IMG/VR virus record: IMGVR_UViG_3300044712_000982 | Coordinates: 21,373-85,372 of that record | Length of the DNA: 64,000 bases | DNA from: a virus | Direction: 5' to 3' (one strand) | Shown here: positions 2,890 to 55,213 of the stretch, one piece after another | Layout of the letters: each line of letters starts with the position of its first letter | Position numbering within the stretch: position 1 is the stretch's first letter | Notes under the pieces: generated by a model | Seen by the model: only the letters and a program-made list of their open reading frames with translations | The model's database searches: none | What the model was told of the DNA's origin: nothing | Translations under genes and position numbers: made by a program

Positions 2890-4046
2890 GTGAGAGACGC
2901 CGAACTGTGCGCCGGCTTCGGGGGCTTGCACCTCGGCCTCCAACTCGCCGGACTCCCCGTCCATCTCGCGTGGTACGCCGAAAACGACCCCGCACCATCC
3001 GTCGTCATGGCCACCCACCACCCCGACACCCCCAACATCGGCGACATCACCACCGCCAACTGGGACGCAGCCGAACCGGTCGACATCCTCTGCGCCGGAT
3101 TTCCATGCCAGCCGTTCTCCCTCGCAGGGAAACGGCGCGGATCAGCCGACGAACGTCACCTCTGGCTCACCGGCGTGCTCCCCGCGATCACGACGCTTGA
3201 GCCCGAGGTCTTCTTCGGCGAGAACGTCCCCGGGCTGCTCACCATCGAACGCGGCGAGGTTTTCCGCGCGATCCTCACCGACCTCACCGCGCGCAACTAC
3301 ACCATCCGCTGGACCACCATCGGCGCCTGCAAAGTCGGCCTGTGCCACCACCGGCACCGCGTCTTCATCCTCGCAACCCGCCAGATCGGCGAACTCCCAC
3401 CCGAGTTGGGCATGCCGATCTCGGCCTGGTCCAGGGGCCGCAGCCGCAACCCGTGGCCGCGCGACGGAGTATGCGCGGGCGGCGAAGTGTGGGACGAACC
3501 TACCGACCACTGCCACAAGACCGGCCTACTGCCCACCCCGACCGCGACACCGTACGGCAACAACCAGACCGACAGCCCGGGTGCCGCCGTGCGCCCATCA
3601 CTCGACGCCCTCGCGCCACTCCTACCGACGCCACGCGCATCCGACGGCGAAAAGGGCGGCCCGAACCAGCGCGGATCATCCGGCGACCTCGCCCTACCCG
3701 CCGCCGTGCAGCCCGAACGGTGGGGCCAGTACGCCGAGGCCGTGTGGCGACACGAACTCATCACCGGCATGCGCGCACCCGACCCGACCATCACCGGCAA
3801 ACGCGGCGGACGTCGCCTCAATCCGGAGCTCACAGAGTGGATGCAAGGGCTACCGGCCGGGTGGATCACCGGCTCGATCCTGCCCGACAAGGACCCGCGT
3901 CCGGACCGCATCGACCGGAACGCCGCTAACAAGATCGCTGGAAACGGCGTGGCTGTTCCCGCCGTGGCTGCCGCCGTGCGCCGGCTACTCGACCGTGCTG
4001 GCTGGGCCGCGCTGCCATCCCAACCCGCACCGGAGGTGCAGCATGA
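2890..4046 (+). CDS. DNA (cytosine-5) methyltransferase; no in-frame stop at the expected end
   Basis: LCAGFGG (motif I), GFPCQPFS (IV), ENV (VI), HRHRVFIL (VIII), GNGVAVP (X); end set at the out-of-frame TGA 4044-4046, while the frame itself stays open to 5595. Confidence 0.9.
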
Positions 4047-51280: not shown

Positions 51281-51531
51281 TCGATTCCCTCCAGTATCGC
51301 GTAGGCGACCGCGGCCACCTGGACTAGTTCTTCACGGAGCGCGTCCGGGTCGCAGTCGAGCGCGGCCCGTGCGACCTCCCCGCATTCCTCCGTCAATACG
51401 GCAACCTTCACCATTAGCGGCACGTCGGGGCTGGAGCAGTCCCCGTGGCCGTGCGCATGCTGGCGTCCCCACAGCCGACGTTGCCGCGCACGCTCGGCGG
51501 CAACGTCGGCTGTAATGTCGTCGAATTTCAC
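51277..51531 (-). CDS. MazG-like nucleotide pyrophosphohydrolase
   Basis: VLTEECGEVARA..LREELVQVAAVA. Confidence 0.8.
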   Translation of the reverse strand: MKFDDITADVAAERARQRRLWGRQHAHGHGDCSSPDVPLMVKVAVLTEECGEVARAALDCDPDALREELVQVAAVAYAILEGIE

Positions 51532-53501
51532 AGCTCGAACAGCCGCGGCTGCGACATCTCGTCGTCGAGACCGCGCAGCGTCTTGACTGCGGTCTCCCAG
51601 TAGGACGGCTTCAGTTCGATGCCGAGCGCGCGGCGTCCCCGCTTGACGGACACATACAGCTCGGATCCGATGCCGGCGAACGGCGTGAACACAGTCTCGC
51701 CCTGCCGTGAATACATCCGGACGCACCGGTCGATGAAATCCAACTGGAGAGGACAGTTGTGAACGACGGCGCCCTCCGCGACGAAAGAGGCGTCGTCCTC
51801 CACCTGAAGGTCCCATACCTCTGCGAATCCTGAGGGCTGCGAACGGCGCACCTTCTTCCATGCTCCGTCGGTGTCTATCCACCCAGACTGGCGGTATCCC
51901 TCACTGTTCCGAAAGGCGAAGATCCAGTCCTGGCGGGCAACGACCGACCGACCGTCGATCACGTGCTTGCGTTCTGGTCGGCCAGCGTAAACGCTCGCCA
52001 CCACGCCACGGGCACGCTGTGCCACCATGGCCATGCCCAGCAGGAGCGCCCGAGATACCGACGATGCCGTCCACCGGTCGTAGCGTCCGACGTAGTGACC
52101 ATCGGCCGACAGATATCCGGCCAACAGTGCCTCCGCTTTCGGCTGTGGCAACGTCAGAAGTTCCCCCGGCACTCGCTTTCGATGGGCACCCTCGCCGCAA
52201 CGGGCTAGCGTGGCGCGGAGGTCGGGTGACAGGTTCCTGAGGCTGACTTGGATGTCGGTGCCGGGGTCATGGGCCGCCCCTGCCTGGTGCCCCAGTCGCT
52301 CCGAAAGTTCGGCGAATTCACCCCGCGCGCACGACAGGATGAACTGACCCGTTCCGCCCCGTACGCCACTACGGCGATGAGCCGACGCTCGGTGTCCATC
52401 GCCCAGCCACCTACCAATGACCCAACACTCATGCTCGCTGAGTGGTGACTCTTCTATCGGAGGCAACGGAAGGTTGAGGTACGAACCCAGCGTTTCAGAT
52501 GCCGGAATCCACTCCGGCGCAGCAGACTGGGCTCGAGCCTTGGCATGAGGCCCAACACCCCGACGGGCCCACAGCATATGGTCGGCGGTGGTACGAAGAT
52601 CTGCAACCCCCTGGGCGCATGTACGAATCACCGGCTCAATGCCGTTGCACCGCTTCGCGGTTACCGCACGCCATCGGCCATGGTGGGTCAATACCTCGCC
52701 CCCCACCGGTACGGTCTCGATCGGCACGTACCCGTCCCGGGTAAGCACCAGCGATCCTTCGGCCAAGCAGATGTGCCTCTCATCCTCCGGATCGCGGCCG
52801 GCACGGACGTTGAGCGTGTTCGTCTCCTTGATGTCGGTCCATACCGGAGAGATGTGCTCACCGCCGAGCGCGGCACCCTCGCCACGGTCGAACCAGATCG
52901 GCGACGCCCACTCGATCCACTCATCGTTGGTGAAGTCCCCACCCTTCGCGTCGTGCGGGATCTTCGCCGCGTTGTCGCCGGGCTTCTTGAAAATCAGAAG
53001 GTAGTCGGCGAGTGCCGGGCGGATACCCATCGAATCGCGGTTCTTGGTCTGAAATGCGAGCGAATACGAATGCGTGCGGATACTCTGCGCCTGCGGGTCT
53101 TTCCAGATCGTAGCCTCCCCATAGAAGATCCATCCCTCATCCTGGAATGCCCGGATCACGTCGCCGCGGAAGTCGGTCAGTCCGATGTGCCCGTGGGTGA
53201 CCTTCGACGTCGTGAGCTGCTGAACGTGCACGCAGGCGTTGCGTCCCGGCTTCGTGATCCGCAGCTGCTCACGGATGATGAACCGGTAGTGGTCCAGGAA
53301 TTCCGTACGGGTGGACGAGTTGCCCAGGTCGCGGACGCTCGGCGAATAGACGAAGAGCGAAGCGAACGGGGGGCTACACACTGACAGGTCGACCGACTCA
53401 TCCGGAATCTCGGCCATGCGCTCGCACGAGTCGCCGAGCATGAGCCGCCACATGTCGCCGCATGCGTCGTCGGTCACGTATCCGTCGGTCTCGGTGGTCA
53501 C
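51528..53501 (-). CDS. DNA N6-adenine/N4-cytosine methyltransferase with intein
   Basis: LGDSCE, SVCSPPF, KPGRNACVH; after intein CPLQLDFIDRC, FTPFAGIGSE. Confidence 0.9.
   Translation of the reverse strand: MTTETDGYVTDDACGDMWRLMLGDSCERMAEIPDESVDLSVCSPPFASLFVYSPSVRDLGNSSTRTEFLDHYRFIIREQLRITKPGRNACVHVQQLTTSKVTHGHIGLTDFRGDVIRAFQDEGWIFYGEATIWKDPQAQSIRTHSYSLAFQTKNRDSMGIRPALADYLLIFKKPGDNAAKIPHDAKGGDFTNDEWIEWASPIWFDRGEGAALGGEHISPVWTDIKETNTLNVRAGRDPEDERHICLAEGSLVLTRDGYVPIETVPVGGEVLTHHGRWRAVTAKRCNGIEPVIRTCAQGVADLRTTADHMLWARRGVGPHAKARAQSAAPEWIPASETLGSYLNLPLPPIEESPLSEHECWVIGRWLGDGHRASAHRRSGVRGGTGQFILSCARGEFAELSERLGHQAGAAHDPGTDIQVSLRNLSPDLRATLARCGEGAHRKRVPGELLTLPQPKAEALLAGYLSADGHYVGRYDRWTASSVSRALLLGMAMVAQRARGVVASVYAGRPERKHVIDGRSVVARQDWIFAFRNSEGYRQSGWIDTDGAWKKVRRSQPSGFAEVWDLQVEDDASFVAEGAVVHNCPLQLDFIDRCVRMYSRQGETVFTPFAGIGSELYVSVKRGRRALGIELKPSYWETAVKTLRGLDDEMSQPRLFEL
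51756..52769 (-). mobile_element. intein (338 aa) with LAGLIDADG homing endonuclease
   Basis: C1-LAEGSLVLT, T.DH block B, GRWLGDG and LAGYLSADG, VWDLQVEDDASFVAEGAVVHN followed by Cys+1. Confidence 0.93.
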
Positions 53502-55213
53502 TGCGATTCTCCGATCAGCGTGTTGCGGGACTGCATGGCGGTGACGAGCGCTTCGATCATCTGTGCCGCGTCTGATTCTTTCCGTGCGACGTTTGCCGCA
53601 ATCTGCGATTCCAGCTCGGACAGCACGACGTGCACGTTGACGATGCGCGCCTGACCGTACCGGTAGCAGCGGCGAATGGCCTGGTAGTAAGACTCGTATG
53701 AGTCAGACAGTCCAACAAATGCCATCCTGGCGCAATGCTGCCAGTTCATTCCAAACGAATACATTCCTGGTTTTACTACCAGGATTCGGAACTTTCCTGC
53801 GCGCCATTCCTGGTCAATCTCGACGCGCCTACCGACGGGAGTACGGCCGTCGATTCCGCGACATTCGTCGCCGAGTGCTGATACTAGCGCGTCTTGTTCG
53901 TCATTCAATCCACACCAGATGACCCACTGGTCCCGGCACGCATGATGTACCGGTACAATGCCATCATCCGGAGCGGATCGTCCTGCAGGTGACCCATCGC
54001 CAGGTTGCATGGCTGACAAAGAACACCGCGGACCATGCCGGTCGTATGGTTGTGGTCGATGTGCAGCCGAACCGTCTGATCCACATGATGATTCGCCCCA
54101 CATGCCTGACATCCGAGATCGAGCATCATCTCGATCTCGTCCCGGCTCAATCCGTACTGCCACGCCCTCCGCTGTAGGGGTTGACGTTTGCGATACTCGG
54201 ATACTTGGCGCTTGATCTCCTCCCGGTGCTTCGCGTCCAGCGCGTAGCGTTCGCGCCGCAAAGCATTCCTCCGCTCGTTCAGTTCCGGAGTTCGCTCCCA
54301 TTTTTCCTTGTTGGCCAAATAGTAGGCCCTGCTGTACTCTCTGCGATCCGCAGTCACTAACTAATTGTACAGCCCTATCAACCCGCGCGCTTAGGGTTGA
54401 ACGACGCACTTTCGCGCGTCCCCCGACCCCTCCGAGGTCAGTGGCGAACAGTTGACCCTCCGCCTCGACTTCGACCGGGATCAACTCCGGAACGATGTTG
54501 AGTCCCGGCAGGTTGTAGCCGGTGTCCGGGTAGCCGACGTCGGACGGTCGGCGGAGAGCAATCGCCCACGTCGACATCCACCGGAACATCGGGCCTTTCG
54601 CGTGGCCTTTGAGTCGCCATCCGTCCGAGTCGTGGACGAAGTAGCTGGCCAACATTTCCACGCGGGGCATGACCCCGAGGAATTCGGCCTGACTAGTGAG
54701 TTCCTCCGGGTCGTTGGGGGCCGGCGTGGCGGTGCATGCGAGCCGGTACGGCACGTCACGGAAGTGGGTGATGAGTTTCGTGCGGGTCTTGCCGTCGGAC
54801 TGCTTGAGGATGCTGGCCTCGTCGAGACATACAGCACCGAACAGCGCGGGCGAAAAGTGGTCGATCATCTCATAGTTGGTGACCCACACCCCGGGCCCGG
54901 TTACGTCATCGCCAGATCGTACGTACCGCGCGGTTACGTCGACCTTGGCGGCCTCGCGGACGGTCTGCTGGCACACGGCCAGCGGTGCGACAATCAGTGA
55001 CGTGTCGGCCGACAGCCGGCACCATTCGATCTGCTGGATCGTCTTGCCGAGCCCCGTATCTTCCCACATCGCCGCGCGCCCGACCCTGACCGCCCATTTG
55101 ACGATCCTGGCCTGCCATGGGTGCAGCATTGGGTGAACGTCTGACACGTCAATGTCACGGCCGAGATGCGACGCGGATCGTACCTTGCGCGCGAGGAATT
55201 CGGCGTAGCTCAC
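53498..55213 (-). CDS. SNF2/SF2 helicase-like protein with an insertion of about 135 aa
   Basis: DTGLGKT, LDEASILK, LACTATPAPND, WCGLNDEQ, GMNWQHC, QAIRRCYRYGQ. Confidence 0.9.
   Translation of the reverse strand: MSYAEFLARKVRSASHLGRDIDVSDVHPMLHPWQARIVKWAVRVGRAAMWEDTGLGKTIQQIEWCRLSADTSLIVAPLAVCQQTVREAAKVDVTARYVRSGDDVTGPGVWVTNYEMIDHFSPALFGAVCLDEASILKQSDGKTRTKLITHFRDVPYRLACTATPAPNDPEELTSQAEFLGVMPRVEMLASYFVHDSDGWRLKGHAKGPMFRWMSTWAIALRRPSDVGYPDTGYNLPGLNIVPELIPVEVEAEGQLFATDLGGVGGRAKVRRSTLSARVDRAVQLVSDCGSQRVQQGLLFGQQGKMGANSGTERAEECFAARTLRAGREAPGGDQAPSIRVSQTSTPTAEGVAVRIEPGRDRDDARSRMSGMWGESSCGSDGSAAHRPQPYDRHGPRCSLSAMQPGDGSPAGRSAPDDGIVPVHHACRDQWVIWCGLNDEQDALVSALGDECRGIDGRTPVGRRVEIDQEWRAGKFRILVVKPGMYSFGMNWQHCARMAFVGLSDSYESYYQAIRRCYRYGQARIVNVHVVLSELESQIAANVARKESDAAQMIEALVTAMQSRNTLIGESQ
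53905..54357 (-). mobile_element. endonuclease VII-family homing endonuclease nested in the +1 frame of the helicase
   Basis: YGLS..CQACG..LHIDHNHTTGMVRGVLCQPCNLAMGHLQDD. Confidence 0.88.

Follow-up and report, generated by a model that had tools for sequence, protein, structure and literature searches.

The SNF2-like DNA helicase gene in the 64,000-nucleotide stretch of phage DNA analysed here (the window) most probably, with a probability of about 0.8, harbors a homing-endonuclease element that is nested out of frame and requires no splicing, the helicase being read through the insert and the nuclease being made separately. In the proposed explanation, an EndoVII-type HNH gene was inserted in the DNA encoding a surface linker between the RecA lobes of the helicase. 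The helicase mRNA would be translated straight through the insert, resulting in an extra disordered loop of ~140 residues, the sequence of which would be irrelevant provided that it contains no stop codon and has a length that is a multiple of three. For the nuclease, initiation would take place internally, in the +1 frame, at the GTG codon at position 54357. As suggested by related copies, the enzyme would cut insert-free helicase alleles, probably near the site coding for LV-AAEPxEPW, and repair from the occupied allele would copy in the element along with some flanking helicase sequence. Dual-coding overprinting in a tolerant inter-lobe linker, as suggested in the initial annotation of this DNA, is supported by the avoidance of stop codons in the helicase frame and by the lack of intron or intein signatures.

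Layout of the nested nuclease gene and its helicase host

Alignment with more than 60 insert-free helicases fixes the boundaries of the insert between the LV and QW codons (Table 1) and indicates a net gain of ~137 codons between the two RecA lobes, in good agreement with the ~135 junk-like residues of the initial annotation. The 453-nt nuclease ORF covers the whole 429-nt insert. Its GTG start codon overlaps the Ser-Asp codons of the helicase sequence LVSD, and its TGA stop codon overlaps the Gly-Leu codons of QWVIWCGL, a sequence that is also encoded by insert-free alleles (alignment and three-frame view of the 3′ junction). The ORF list, the Pfam match, the frame offset and both junctions therefore bear out what had been noted initially, namely a complete EndoVII ORF on the same strand, in the +1 frame, starting within LVSD and ending within QWVIWCGL. 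The remark that a group I core would have no room outside the ORF also holds, because the insert lies wholly inside the nuclease ORF and contains no ORF-free sequence that could accommodate a ribozyme core.

Table 1. Positions of the helicase gene, the insert and the nested nuclease gene in the window
Feature	Position	Strand	Description and basis
SNF2-like DNA helicase ORF	53498..55213	minus	571 aa, one unbroken frame including the insert; ORF list, Pfam
Helicase part upstream of insert	54359..55213	minus	aa 1-285, RecA lobe 1 and helical bundle, last codons LV
Inserted segment	53930..54358	minus	429 nt between LV and QW codons; alignment to insert-free helicases
EndoVII-type (His-Me/HNH) nuclease ORF	53905..54357	minus	150 aa, GTG start, +1 relative to helicase frame
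AT-rich stretch just upstream of nuclease GTG	54358..54379	minus	Rare helicase codons; direct sequence reading
Nuclease ORF tail	53905..53929	minus	Last 8 codons and stop, within conserved helicase codons QWVIWCGL
Helicase part downstream of insert	53498..53929	minus	RecA lobe 2, aa 430-571; alignments

Internal initiation at the GTG codon in the +1 frame is the probable mode of nuclease expression, and the AT-rich stretch immediately upstream probably provides a poorly structured initiation region. Direct reading of the sequence upstream of this GTG reveals no Shine-Dalgarno match, and a promoter scan of its vicinity gave no promoter-like site; in a relative (L005), GGAG is located 9 nt upstream of the nuclease ATG and is built from helicase codons. 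A terminator scan yielded one terminator-like site, which is on the opposite strand and at chance level. Ribosomal bypass and internal re-initiation, initially offered as alternatives, do not have to be invoked, given that selection maintains an open helicase frame; a frameshift fusion is likewise not needed, as the frame is continuous and the nuclease frame contains a TAG two codons ahead of its GTG start (direct sequence reading).

The nuclease matches PF02945 (E 8.8e-17; 61.2 bits vs. a curated cutoff of 23.6) and contains the zinc-binding and catalytic motif CxxC...DH...CxxCN, in which Cys83, Cys86, Asp101, His102, His104, Cys114, Cys117 and Asn118 are the same in all four copies that were aligned (window, L005, L031, L011). 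Its profile matches in the PDB include Hpy99I (1.4e-12) and T4 endonuclease VII (gp49; 2.4e-6), with which it shares the zinc-binding Cys pairs, and the Asp-His and Asn catalytic motif of the His-Me finger fold. However, those enzymes are encoded by stand-alone genes and have resolvase or restriction roles, whereas the window nuclease is nested in a host gene, and the N-terminal half of the latter is basic and helical, unlike theirs. In the nuclease frame, GC3 exceeds GC1 and GC2, and the differences at codon positions 1/2/3 amount to 52/37/69 between the window and L005 and to 34/23/76 between Gordonia phage Malisha and L031. The distribution of these differences marks the nuclease frame as the one under protein-level purifying selection.

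The helicase matches SNF2-rel_dom (E 6e-8) and Helicase_C (E 2e-6) in Pfam and retains every column that is invariant in 38 homologues, including Walker A GxGKT and DE. AF2 yields a confident two-lobe model (pLDDT mostly 85–97 in the upstream part and ~76–93 in the downstream part) in which residues 290–426, corresponding to the insert, have a pLDDT of 26–33 and no secondary structure. The peptide encoded by the insert in the helicase frame is of low complexity and predicted to be disordered, and its GC content by codon position (0.72/0.63/0.42) is unlike that of genes of the same genome. The long helicase carrying the insert is probably functional.

Stop-codon avoidance in the helicase frame

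Synonymous shuffling, proposed initially as a gauge of chance openness, was performed by resampling the EndoVII ORF and counting stop codons in the helicase frame. In the window insert, 3.6–6.5 stops would be expected and none is present; the probability of an open helicase frame is <0.0002 with the ORF's own codons, 0.011 with genome codon usage and 0.017 with context-aware usage, though under a lenient null ~10% of 144-codon windows in the ordinary genes of this genome (65% GC) are open in the same relative frame. The same resampling gives 0.004–0.013 for L005 and 0.009 for L185. The nuclease proteins of these two relatives are only 55–56% identical to that of the window, and synonymous sites are therefore close to independent among the three tests.

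Own-codon permutation of many other nested copies, including those with a different relative frame at the same site (type B, see below), gives P values of 0.07–0.73, which are not significant alone. A control consisting of free-standing nuclease homologues is needed because the codon make-up of nested copies itself already avoids stops. Of the 59 free-standing homologues, two have an open E+1 frame and none an open E+2 frame; the frame equivalent to the window's helicase frame is open in 0/59, and in 0/19 of those at similar GC. Conversely, the 17 nested copies (31–69% GC), including those from phages of 31–38% GC, contain no stop codon in the host frame, vs. 1–26 stops in the third frame. Where a nuclease locus is flanked by both helicase halves, the halves are always in one frame that is open across the nuclease ORF. 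At the level of sequence, these comparisons establish that stop codons are avoided in the helicase frame of the insert.

Relatives at the same helicase site and alternative explanations

The window copy, L005 and L185 constitute type A, in which the nuclease is +1 relative to the helicase frame, whereas type B copies, which occupy the same helicase site, have a relative frame of +2. Sequence patterns among type B relatives demonstrate recent mobility with co-conversion. The Gordonia phages Malisha and Squiddly have only 0–1 differences over ~800 nt centred on the insert, whereas most of the remainder of the gene has 3–33 per 100 nt. Over ~50 amino acids downstream of the junction, the Malisha helicase is nearer to L031/L011 than to the empty Holliday allele, to which it is 83% identical elsewhere, a tract that the comparison with Holliday identifies as co-conversion. 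The Malisha and L031 nucleases are 76% identical and their helicases 66%, and the empty alleles of Holliday and L182 adjoin occupied ones on the helicase tree. Compared with L011, L006 lacks 333 nt, including the start and N-terminal half of the nuclease, but the helicase frame is preserved, and its sequence identifies it as an in-frame decay product of a nested nuclease.

Type A helicases are monophyletic (support 98 on the helicase tree), and their nuclease identities (55–56%) and helicase identities (67–70%) indicate co-divergence, so that there is no direct sign of recent homing for type A. A search of the helicase-frame insert against 5.8 billion proteins matched only the window's own protein, which leaves no close type A relatives for a test of recent homing; a megablast search of phage records with the helicase DNA gave no match, and the public reads that match the window phage are exclusively DNA contigs of two rhizosphere metagenomes, which are probably its source and in which neither RNA nor an empty allele nor variants were found. 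The window copy may still be mobile.

Maintenance for a reason other than homing could nevertheless apply to type A. Its nuclease has stayed intact across ~30–35% helicase divergence, which hints at maintenance beyond simple homing, e.g., through exclusion of related phages or a role in recombination. The nuclease sequence may be kept transparent, i.e., devoid of stops, in the host frame regardless of whether the offset is +1 or +2, both of which occur at this helicase site. Furthermore, in Pacc40 gp60 and at a second site in helicases, both ends of the element have host-frame CxC...CxC pairs, which could form a zinc staple that pins the loop ends together. That all of these hold jointly, as an EndoVII lineage specialised for splicing-free residence with a zinc staple and maintenance beyond homing, is a tentative and rather unlikely combination.

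The strongest rival, which nonetheless is improbable, accepts the same layout and takes the nuclease to be domesticated rather than selfish: it would be passed on vertically along with the helicase and would serve, e.g., in resolving junctions, in packaging or as a weapon against co-infecting relatives. The monophyly of type A helicases and the tracking of helicase identity by nuclease identity are in line with this, as is the nuclease being intact and under purifying selection in all three type A copies. In addition, it is the sole EndoVII homologue in the 106-kb genome, and T4 endonuclease VII, a detectable relative, is a resolvase. However, the related type B copies at the same site exhibit recent lateral movement with co-conversion and, in L006, decay, and therefore the life cycle of a selfish element; the nuclease gene is absent from 65 of 68 metagenome helicase loci; and the best PDB relative is the sequence-specific nuclease Hpy99I, not a resolvase.

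Less probable still is that RNA splicing, either host-mediated or through an unrecognised self-splicing activity, eliminates the insert from helicase transcripts, the open frame being incidental. Homing endonuclease genes classically reside in group I introns, and some RNA structure may exist in the window insert, its single-sequence fold having a z of -2.4 (1/100 shuffles as good), although this signal is too slight to carry an argument. Group I introns also exist in actinophages, the example being the LittleE capsid gene as cited in PMC11855218. But Rfam detected no intron family in the window region at E ≤ 10 or in four related loci at E ≤ 1, where a chance flavivirus xrRNA match appeared in L006 only, outside the gene. 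RNAalifold of six inserts produced a weak consensus (-15 kcal/mol) with a positive covariation term and no supported common structure, conserved or covarying. The insert is moreover contained entirely within the nuclease ORF, and the deletion in L006 is in frame. If the RNA were spliced, host-frame stops would not be selected against, whereas 17/17 nested copies are stop-free, down to 31% GC.

The chance is slimmer still that the insert is a degenerate or unusual intein spliced from the protein, with the nuclease in another frame. The adjoining methylase gene carries an intein, true inteins with out-of-frame EndoVII-like genes inside them exist (10.1101/2025.01.02.630785), and, in the helicase frame, the first residue of the insert is Cys in both the window and L005, with His-His-Ala then Cys at the end in the former and His-Ala then Cys in the latter. 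However, the terminal Asn is missing in the window, and both the L185 insert (TD-GSQ...HHAP-RDQW) and type B copies are without the Cys residues. Pfam at E ≤ 10 on five helicase-frame insert peptides, including that of the window, returned nothing relevant and no Hint or intein match; the AF2 loop is unstructured; and the nuclease ORF overprints the whole insert, which leaves no free sequence for splicing blocks. Rfam, RNAalifold, Pfam and AF2 together are in accord with the initial description of an intron-free, intein-free insertion.

The least probable reading attributes the open frame to chance at high GC (65%, with 10% of ordinary 144-codon windows open at the same offset) and regards the helicase as a disrupted pseudogene. 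It is contradicted by the resampling (P 0.0002–0.017 for the window, with comparable values for L005 and L185), by the retention of all invariant helicase motifs and by the stop-free host frames of nested copies at 31–38% GC, and the sequences of the free-standing homologues (0/59) have already refuted it at the family level.

Relation to known systems

The nested element is not the undescribed mechanism suspected in the initial annotation: splicing-free, out-of-frame "hidden HNH" insertions have been reported in methylase and helicase-methylase genes of actinophages (Arsenault, Gosselin, Gogarten, Genes 2025, PMC11855218). Like the ShiLan domain and Pacc40 gp60 of mycobacteriophages, the window insert resides in a replication-module gene, close homologues of which lack it; no stop interrupts the host frame within it, and a same-strand, out-of-frame HNH-type ORF fills nearly all of it, beginning with a GTG near its 5′ end and terminating at the 3′ junction. 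Intron and intein signatures are lacking in both cases, and the host-frame peptide is predicted to be a loop. The disjunct, homing-like distribution of ShiLan/Pacc40 gp60 is seen here for type B relatives, whereas type A is a single clade. The window nuclease belongs to a different sequence family from the Pacc40 gp60 hidden ORF: tblastn at E ≤ 1e-3 with the window, L031, L098 and L101 nucleases gave no match to Pacc40 gp60. Further differences from the ShiLan/Pacc40 gp60 cases are the host site, which is the inter-lobe linker of a stand-alone SNF2-like helicase, and the relative frame, +1 in the window and +2 in type B at the same site.

The EndoVII-like genes located out of frame in actinophage inteins (10.1101/2025.01.02.630785) belong to the same nuclease family and are also on the same strand inside a host gene. 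However, these ORFs lie between the splicing blocks of a real intein and the insert is removed, whereas the window insert has no Hint domain and the host protein must therefore keep it. Free-standing homing endonuclease genes can split phage genes, as does mobE in Aeh1 nrdA (Gibb and Edgell 2007); this too is an intron- and intein-free endonuclease in an essential-type phage gene whose function is retained, but the host protein is made as two separately translated pieces, whereas in the window the host frame is continuous and overlaps the nuclease ORF.

To the ShiLan/Pacc40 gp60 work, the present analysis adds quantitative tests of stop avoidance, free-standing controls, tracts of co-conversion and an example of in-frame decay. 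According to the proposed explanation, no splicing is required for a homing endonuclease gene to persist in a replication-module gene when it shares the DNA of a surface linker with the host frame and leaves that frame free of stops. The phenomenon is wider than the methylase cases of 2025, extending to an EndoVII-type nuclease and to stand-alone SNF2-like helicases at at least two helicase sites; hosts of nested nucleases also include helicase-methylase fusions and a DUF5664-like gene, in phages of 31% to 69% GC. Malisha and Squiddly, which carry the insert, and Holliday, which lacks it, have all been isolated on Gordonia terrae strains and constitute a direct experimental system for read-through, internal initiation and homing. 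In the records of Malisha gp71 and Squiddly gp64, one long "DNA helicase" is annotated, and the nested nuclease was missed by gene callers and curators.

Layout of the nested nuclease gene

The 106-kb source record of the window, an IMG/VR virus, has a GC content of 65% and direct terminal repeats, and is present in two rhizosphere metagenomes. Within its SNF2-like helicase gene lies an endonuclease VII (EndoVII) ORF, whose GTG start shares bases with the helicase Ser-Asp codons of LVSD and whose TGA stop shares bases with the Gly-Leu codons of QWVIWCGL. The three-frame reading agrees exactly with the junctions, strand and +1 frame of the initial annotation, and its observation of an EndoVII ORF nested in an uninterrupted helicase frame is confirmed by ORFs, Pfam matches and junctions. 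Boundaries were set by comparison with >60 insert-free homologues, among them gp64 of mycobacteriophage Blexus and numerous loci from IMG/VR and metagenomes. In these homologues the helicase parts are connected by a linker that is short, variable and rich in Pro and Glu (typically LV-AAEPDEP-W). The net gain is ~137 codons, close to the ~135 residues first estimated, and the last eight nuclease codons and the stop are taken from conserved helicase sequence.

Features of the helicase locus (window coordinates)
Feature	Position	Strand	Remarks
N6/N4 DNA methylase gene	51528-53501	minus	directly downstream of helicase; overlaps helicase stop by 4 nt
SNF2-like helicase ORF	53498-55213	minus	single ORF, 571 aa; SNF2-rel_dom and Helicase_C matches
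EndoVII ORF	53905-54357	minus	150 aa, one base out of helicase frame; Pfam Endonuclease_7 E 8.8e-17
Insert between LV and QW codons	53930-54358	minus	429 nt

The same site is occupied in two ways: in type A (the window and related loci L005 and L185) the nuclease is +1 relative to the helicase frame, and in type B it is +2. Codon-position GC in the insert follows the real-gene pattern of this genome in the nuclease frame and not in the helicase frame, and differences between copies pile up at the third nuclease codon position (positions 1/2/3: 52/37/69 for the window versus L005; 34/23/76 for Gordonia phage Malisha versus the IMG/VR locus L031). The zinc and catalytic residues Cys83, Cys86, Asp101, His102, His104, Cys114, Cys117 and Asn118 are invariant among the window, L005, L031 and L011 (also IMG/VR), and the nuclease profile matches the solved structures of restriction endonuclease Hpy99I (1.4e-12) and T4 endonuclease VII (2.4e-6). 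Because the relative frame differs at the same site, the helicase-frame peptides of type A are unrelated to those of type B; the host-frame sequence is therefore a spacer only.

Maintenance of the open helicase frame

In the synonymous shuffling of the EndoVII ORF suggested in the initial annotation, the helicase frame stayed open in <0.0002 of trials when the nuclease's own codons were permuted, in 0.011 with genome codon usage and in 0.017 with usage conditioned on the next base. No helicase-frame stop occurs across the window nuclease ORF (3.6–6.5 expected under resampling), and all 28 T-ending nuclease codons lack a following AA, AG or GA. A lenient empirical null, ordinary window genes in the same relative frame, gives ~10% open. 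Resampling of the other type A loci, whose nucleases are only 55–56% identical to that of the window, yields 0.004–0.013 (L005) and 0.009 (L185).

As a family control, an IMG/VR pattern scan built from a four-nuclease alignment recovered 80 loci, and in 17 of these the nuclease is nested out of frame inside a longer same-strand ORF. Some host genes encode SNF2-like helicases, occupied either in the linker described here or at a second site, in RecA lobe 2; the others are helicase-methylase fusions and a DUF5664-like gene, and GC across the loci runs from 31% to 69%. The host frame is stop-free across the nuclease ORF in 17/17 nested copies, with 1–26 stops in the remaining frame, and wherever helicase halves flank a nuclease they are co-framed and open across it. 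Among free-standing homologues (n = 59, ≥120 aa), the E+1 frame, counted from the nuclease ORF, is open in 2/59, and E+2, the window's case, in 0/59. Selection therefore maintains an open host frame, a constraint that RNA splicing would not impose.

Introns and inteins were also sought directly. At E ≤ 10, Rfam returned no match in the window region; searches of four related loci gave no intron family, and consensus folding of six inserts gave no supported shared structure (−15 kcal/mol, covariation term positive); folded by itself, the window insert is a little more stable than its shuffled versions (z −2.4), which is weak contrary evidence. The earlier statement that there is no room for a group I core outside the ORF holds, as the whole insert is contained in the nuclease ORF. 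An intein signature is likewise lacking: for five inserts, the peptide read in the helicase frame gave no Pfam match (E ≤ 10), and AlphaFold2 (38-sequence alignment) predicts confident RecA lobes and an unstructured stretch at residues 290–426 (pLDDT 26–33). The window and L005 inserts are faintly intein-like, with Cys first and His-Ala last before another Cys; this reading was rejected as the terminal Asn is absent, L185 has neither Cys and type B has none of these residues.

Stop avoidance, the family control and the lack of a splicing signature thus support dual-coding overprinting in the inter-lobe linker, and read-through of the helicase with separate translation of the nuclease has a probability of roughly 0.8, judged from sequence. 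The simplest reading is that the nuclease would be translated by internal initiation on helicase mRNA. The helicase codons that lead up to the window GTG are rare and AT-rich, with a TAG in the nuclease frame two codons before it, no Shine-Dalgarno match ahead of it and no promoter-like site nearby. L005 has GGAG, composed of helicase codons, 9 nt ahead of its ATG, and type B copies have a 44-nt AT-richer leader.

Several loci from the scan show further arrangements. In L146 and L157 (GC 37–38%, AT-rich phages), a DUF5664/MazG-like gene hosts the out-of-frame nuclease, with 0 host-frame stops across ~190 codons versus 26 in the third frame. In L092 (GC 31%), a helicase-methylase fusion, the host frame is stop-free across the nested EndoVII; outside the insert, TAA replaces a Glu codon of the conserved SFE-LYQA motif, and this single in-frame stop reflects either a sequencing error or recent inactivation of the helicase. 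In L117, a helicase remnant ending straight after Walker A is fused in frame to an EndoVII C-terminal half and followed by a complete second EndoVII copy, a case of invasion that destroyed the host gene.

Mobility of type B copies and comparison with type A

Type B occurs in Gordonia phages Malisha and Squiddly, in IMG/VR loci L011, L025, L031 and L006, and in metagenome loci L168 and L186. In GenBank, Malisha gp71 and Squiddly gp64 are annotated solely as one long 'DNA helicase'; the 176-aa EndoVII ORF (2896-3426 in both L001, Malisha, and L002, Squiddly) is without annotation. In the helicase tree, both cluster with Holliday, a Gordonia phage whose allele is empty, among insert-free mycobacteriophage helicases, distant from other type B hosts. 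Homing by double-strand-break repair with co-conversion is pointed to by five features: Malisha and L031 are 76% identical in the nuclease and 66% in the helicase; ~50 Malisha helicase residues downstream of the junction are closer to L031/L011 than to Holliday, whereas outside them 25–30 of 30 positions match Holliday; Malisha and Squiddly have 0–1 differences across ~800 nt centred on the insert, versus 3–33 per 100 nt in most other gene parts; relative to the empty alleles of Holliday and L182, the element takes the place of 15 nt encoding AAEPG or AAEPD; and L006 is an L011-type copy minus 333 nt, which has lost the nuclease start and N-terminal half and preserved the helicase frame. L006 is a decay stage of the homing cycle, reachable here without precise excision.

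Among the three type A carriers compared, no such direct signs of homing were found; they form one helicase clade in which nuclease and helicase co-diverged, and a search of 5.8 billion proteins returned no close relatives of the window's insert. The window nuclease is either still homing or retained for another reason. In L168, the N-terminal half of the helicase is nearest to that of the window (73%) yet the element is type B, so both frame types are found at this site within a single helicase lineage. The HNH motif of the L168 nuclease contains an additional Cys-rich segment.

Related systems and adjacent elements

The initial annotation considered this a candidate for an undescribed mechanism, but hidden HNH insertions were published in 2025. 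The ShiLan domain and the Pacc40 gp60 insert were presented as out-of-frame hidden HNH genes in phage methylase or helicase-methylase genes, with an open host frame, no intron or intein and homing-like evolution; initiation of an SD-independent or leaderless type was proposed for Mycobacterium hosts (Arsenault, Gosselin and Gogarten, Genes 2025, PMC11855218). The window matches this layout and therefore belongs to a recently described kind; the mechanism is not new. It differs in nuclease family and host site: the Pacc40 insert occupies another helicase site, and its hidden ORF has no similarity to the window nuclease (tblastn, E ≤ 1e-3). The evidence for selection and mobility is stronger here than in the published cases. 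EndoVII-like genes also lie out of frame inside true inteins (Gosselin et al., bioRxiv 2025, 10.1101/2025.01.02.630785), but no Hint domain was found in the window insert.

The adjacent methylase (657 aa versus ~316 aa in Blexus) contains an intein of canonical appearance that starts CLAEGS, ends VVHN/C and includes a LAGLIDADG-like domain, so two different selfish elements occupy adjacent genes. This methylase has no ShiLan-type insert, although its family hosts the published ShiLan domain. The second EndoVII site (L092, L095, L096, L098, L107) is found in a different set of SNF2-like helicases, within the RecA2 lobe and immediately ahead of a VLVSKP-like strand. There, a CxC pair stands at each end of the host-frame insert, the 5′ one ahead of the nuclease start. 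Helicases without the insert have no such pairs; these brackets may act as a zinc staple keeping the loop ends together. The unrelated hidden-HNH insert of Pacc40 gp60 is bracketed likewise (CRCLC...CPC).
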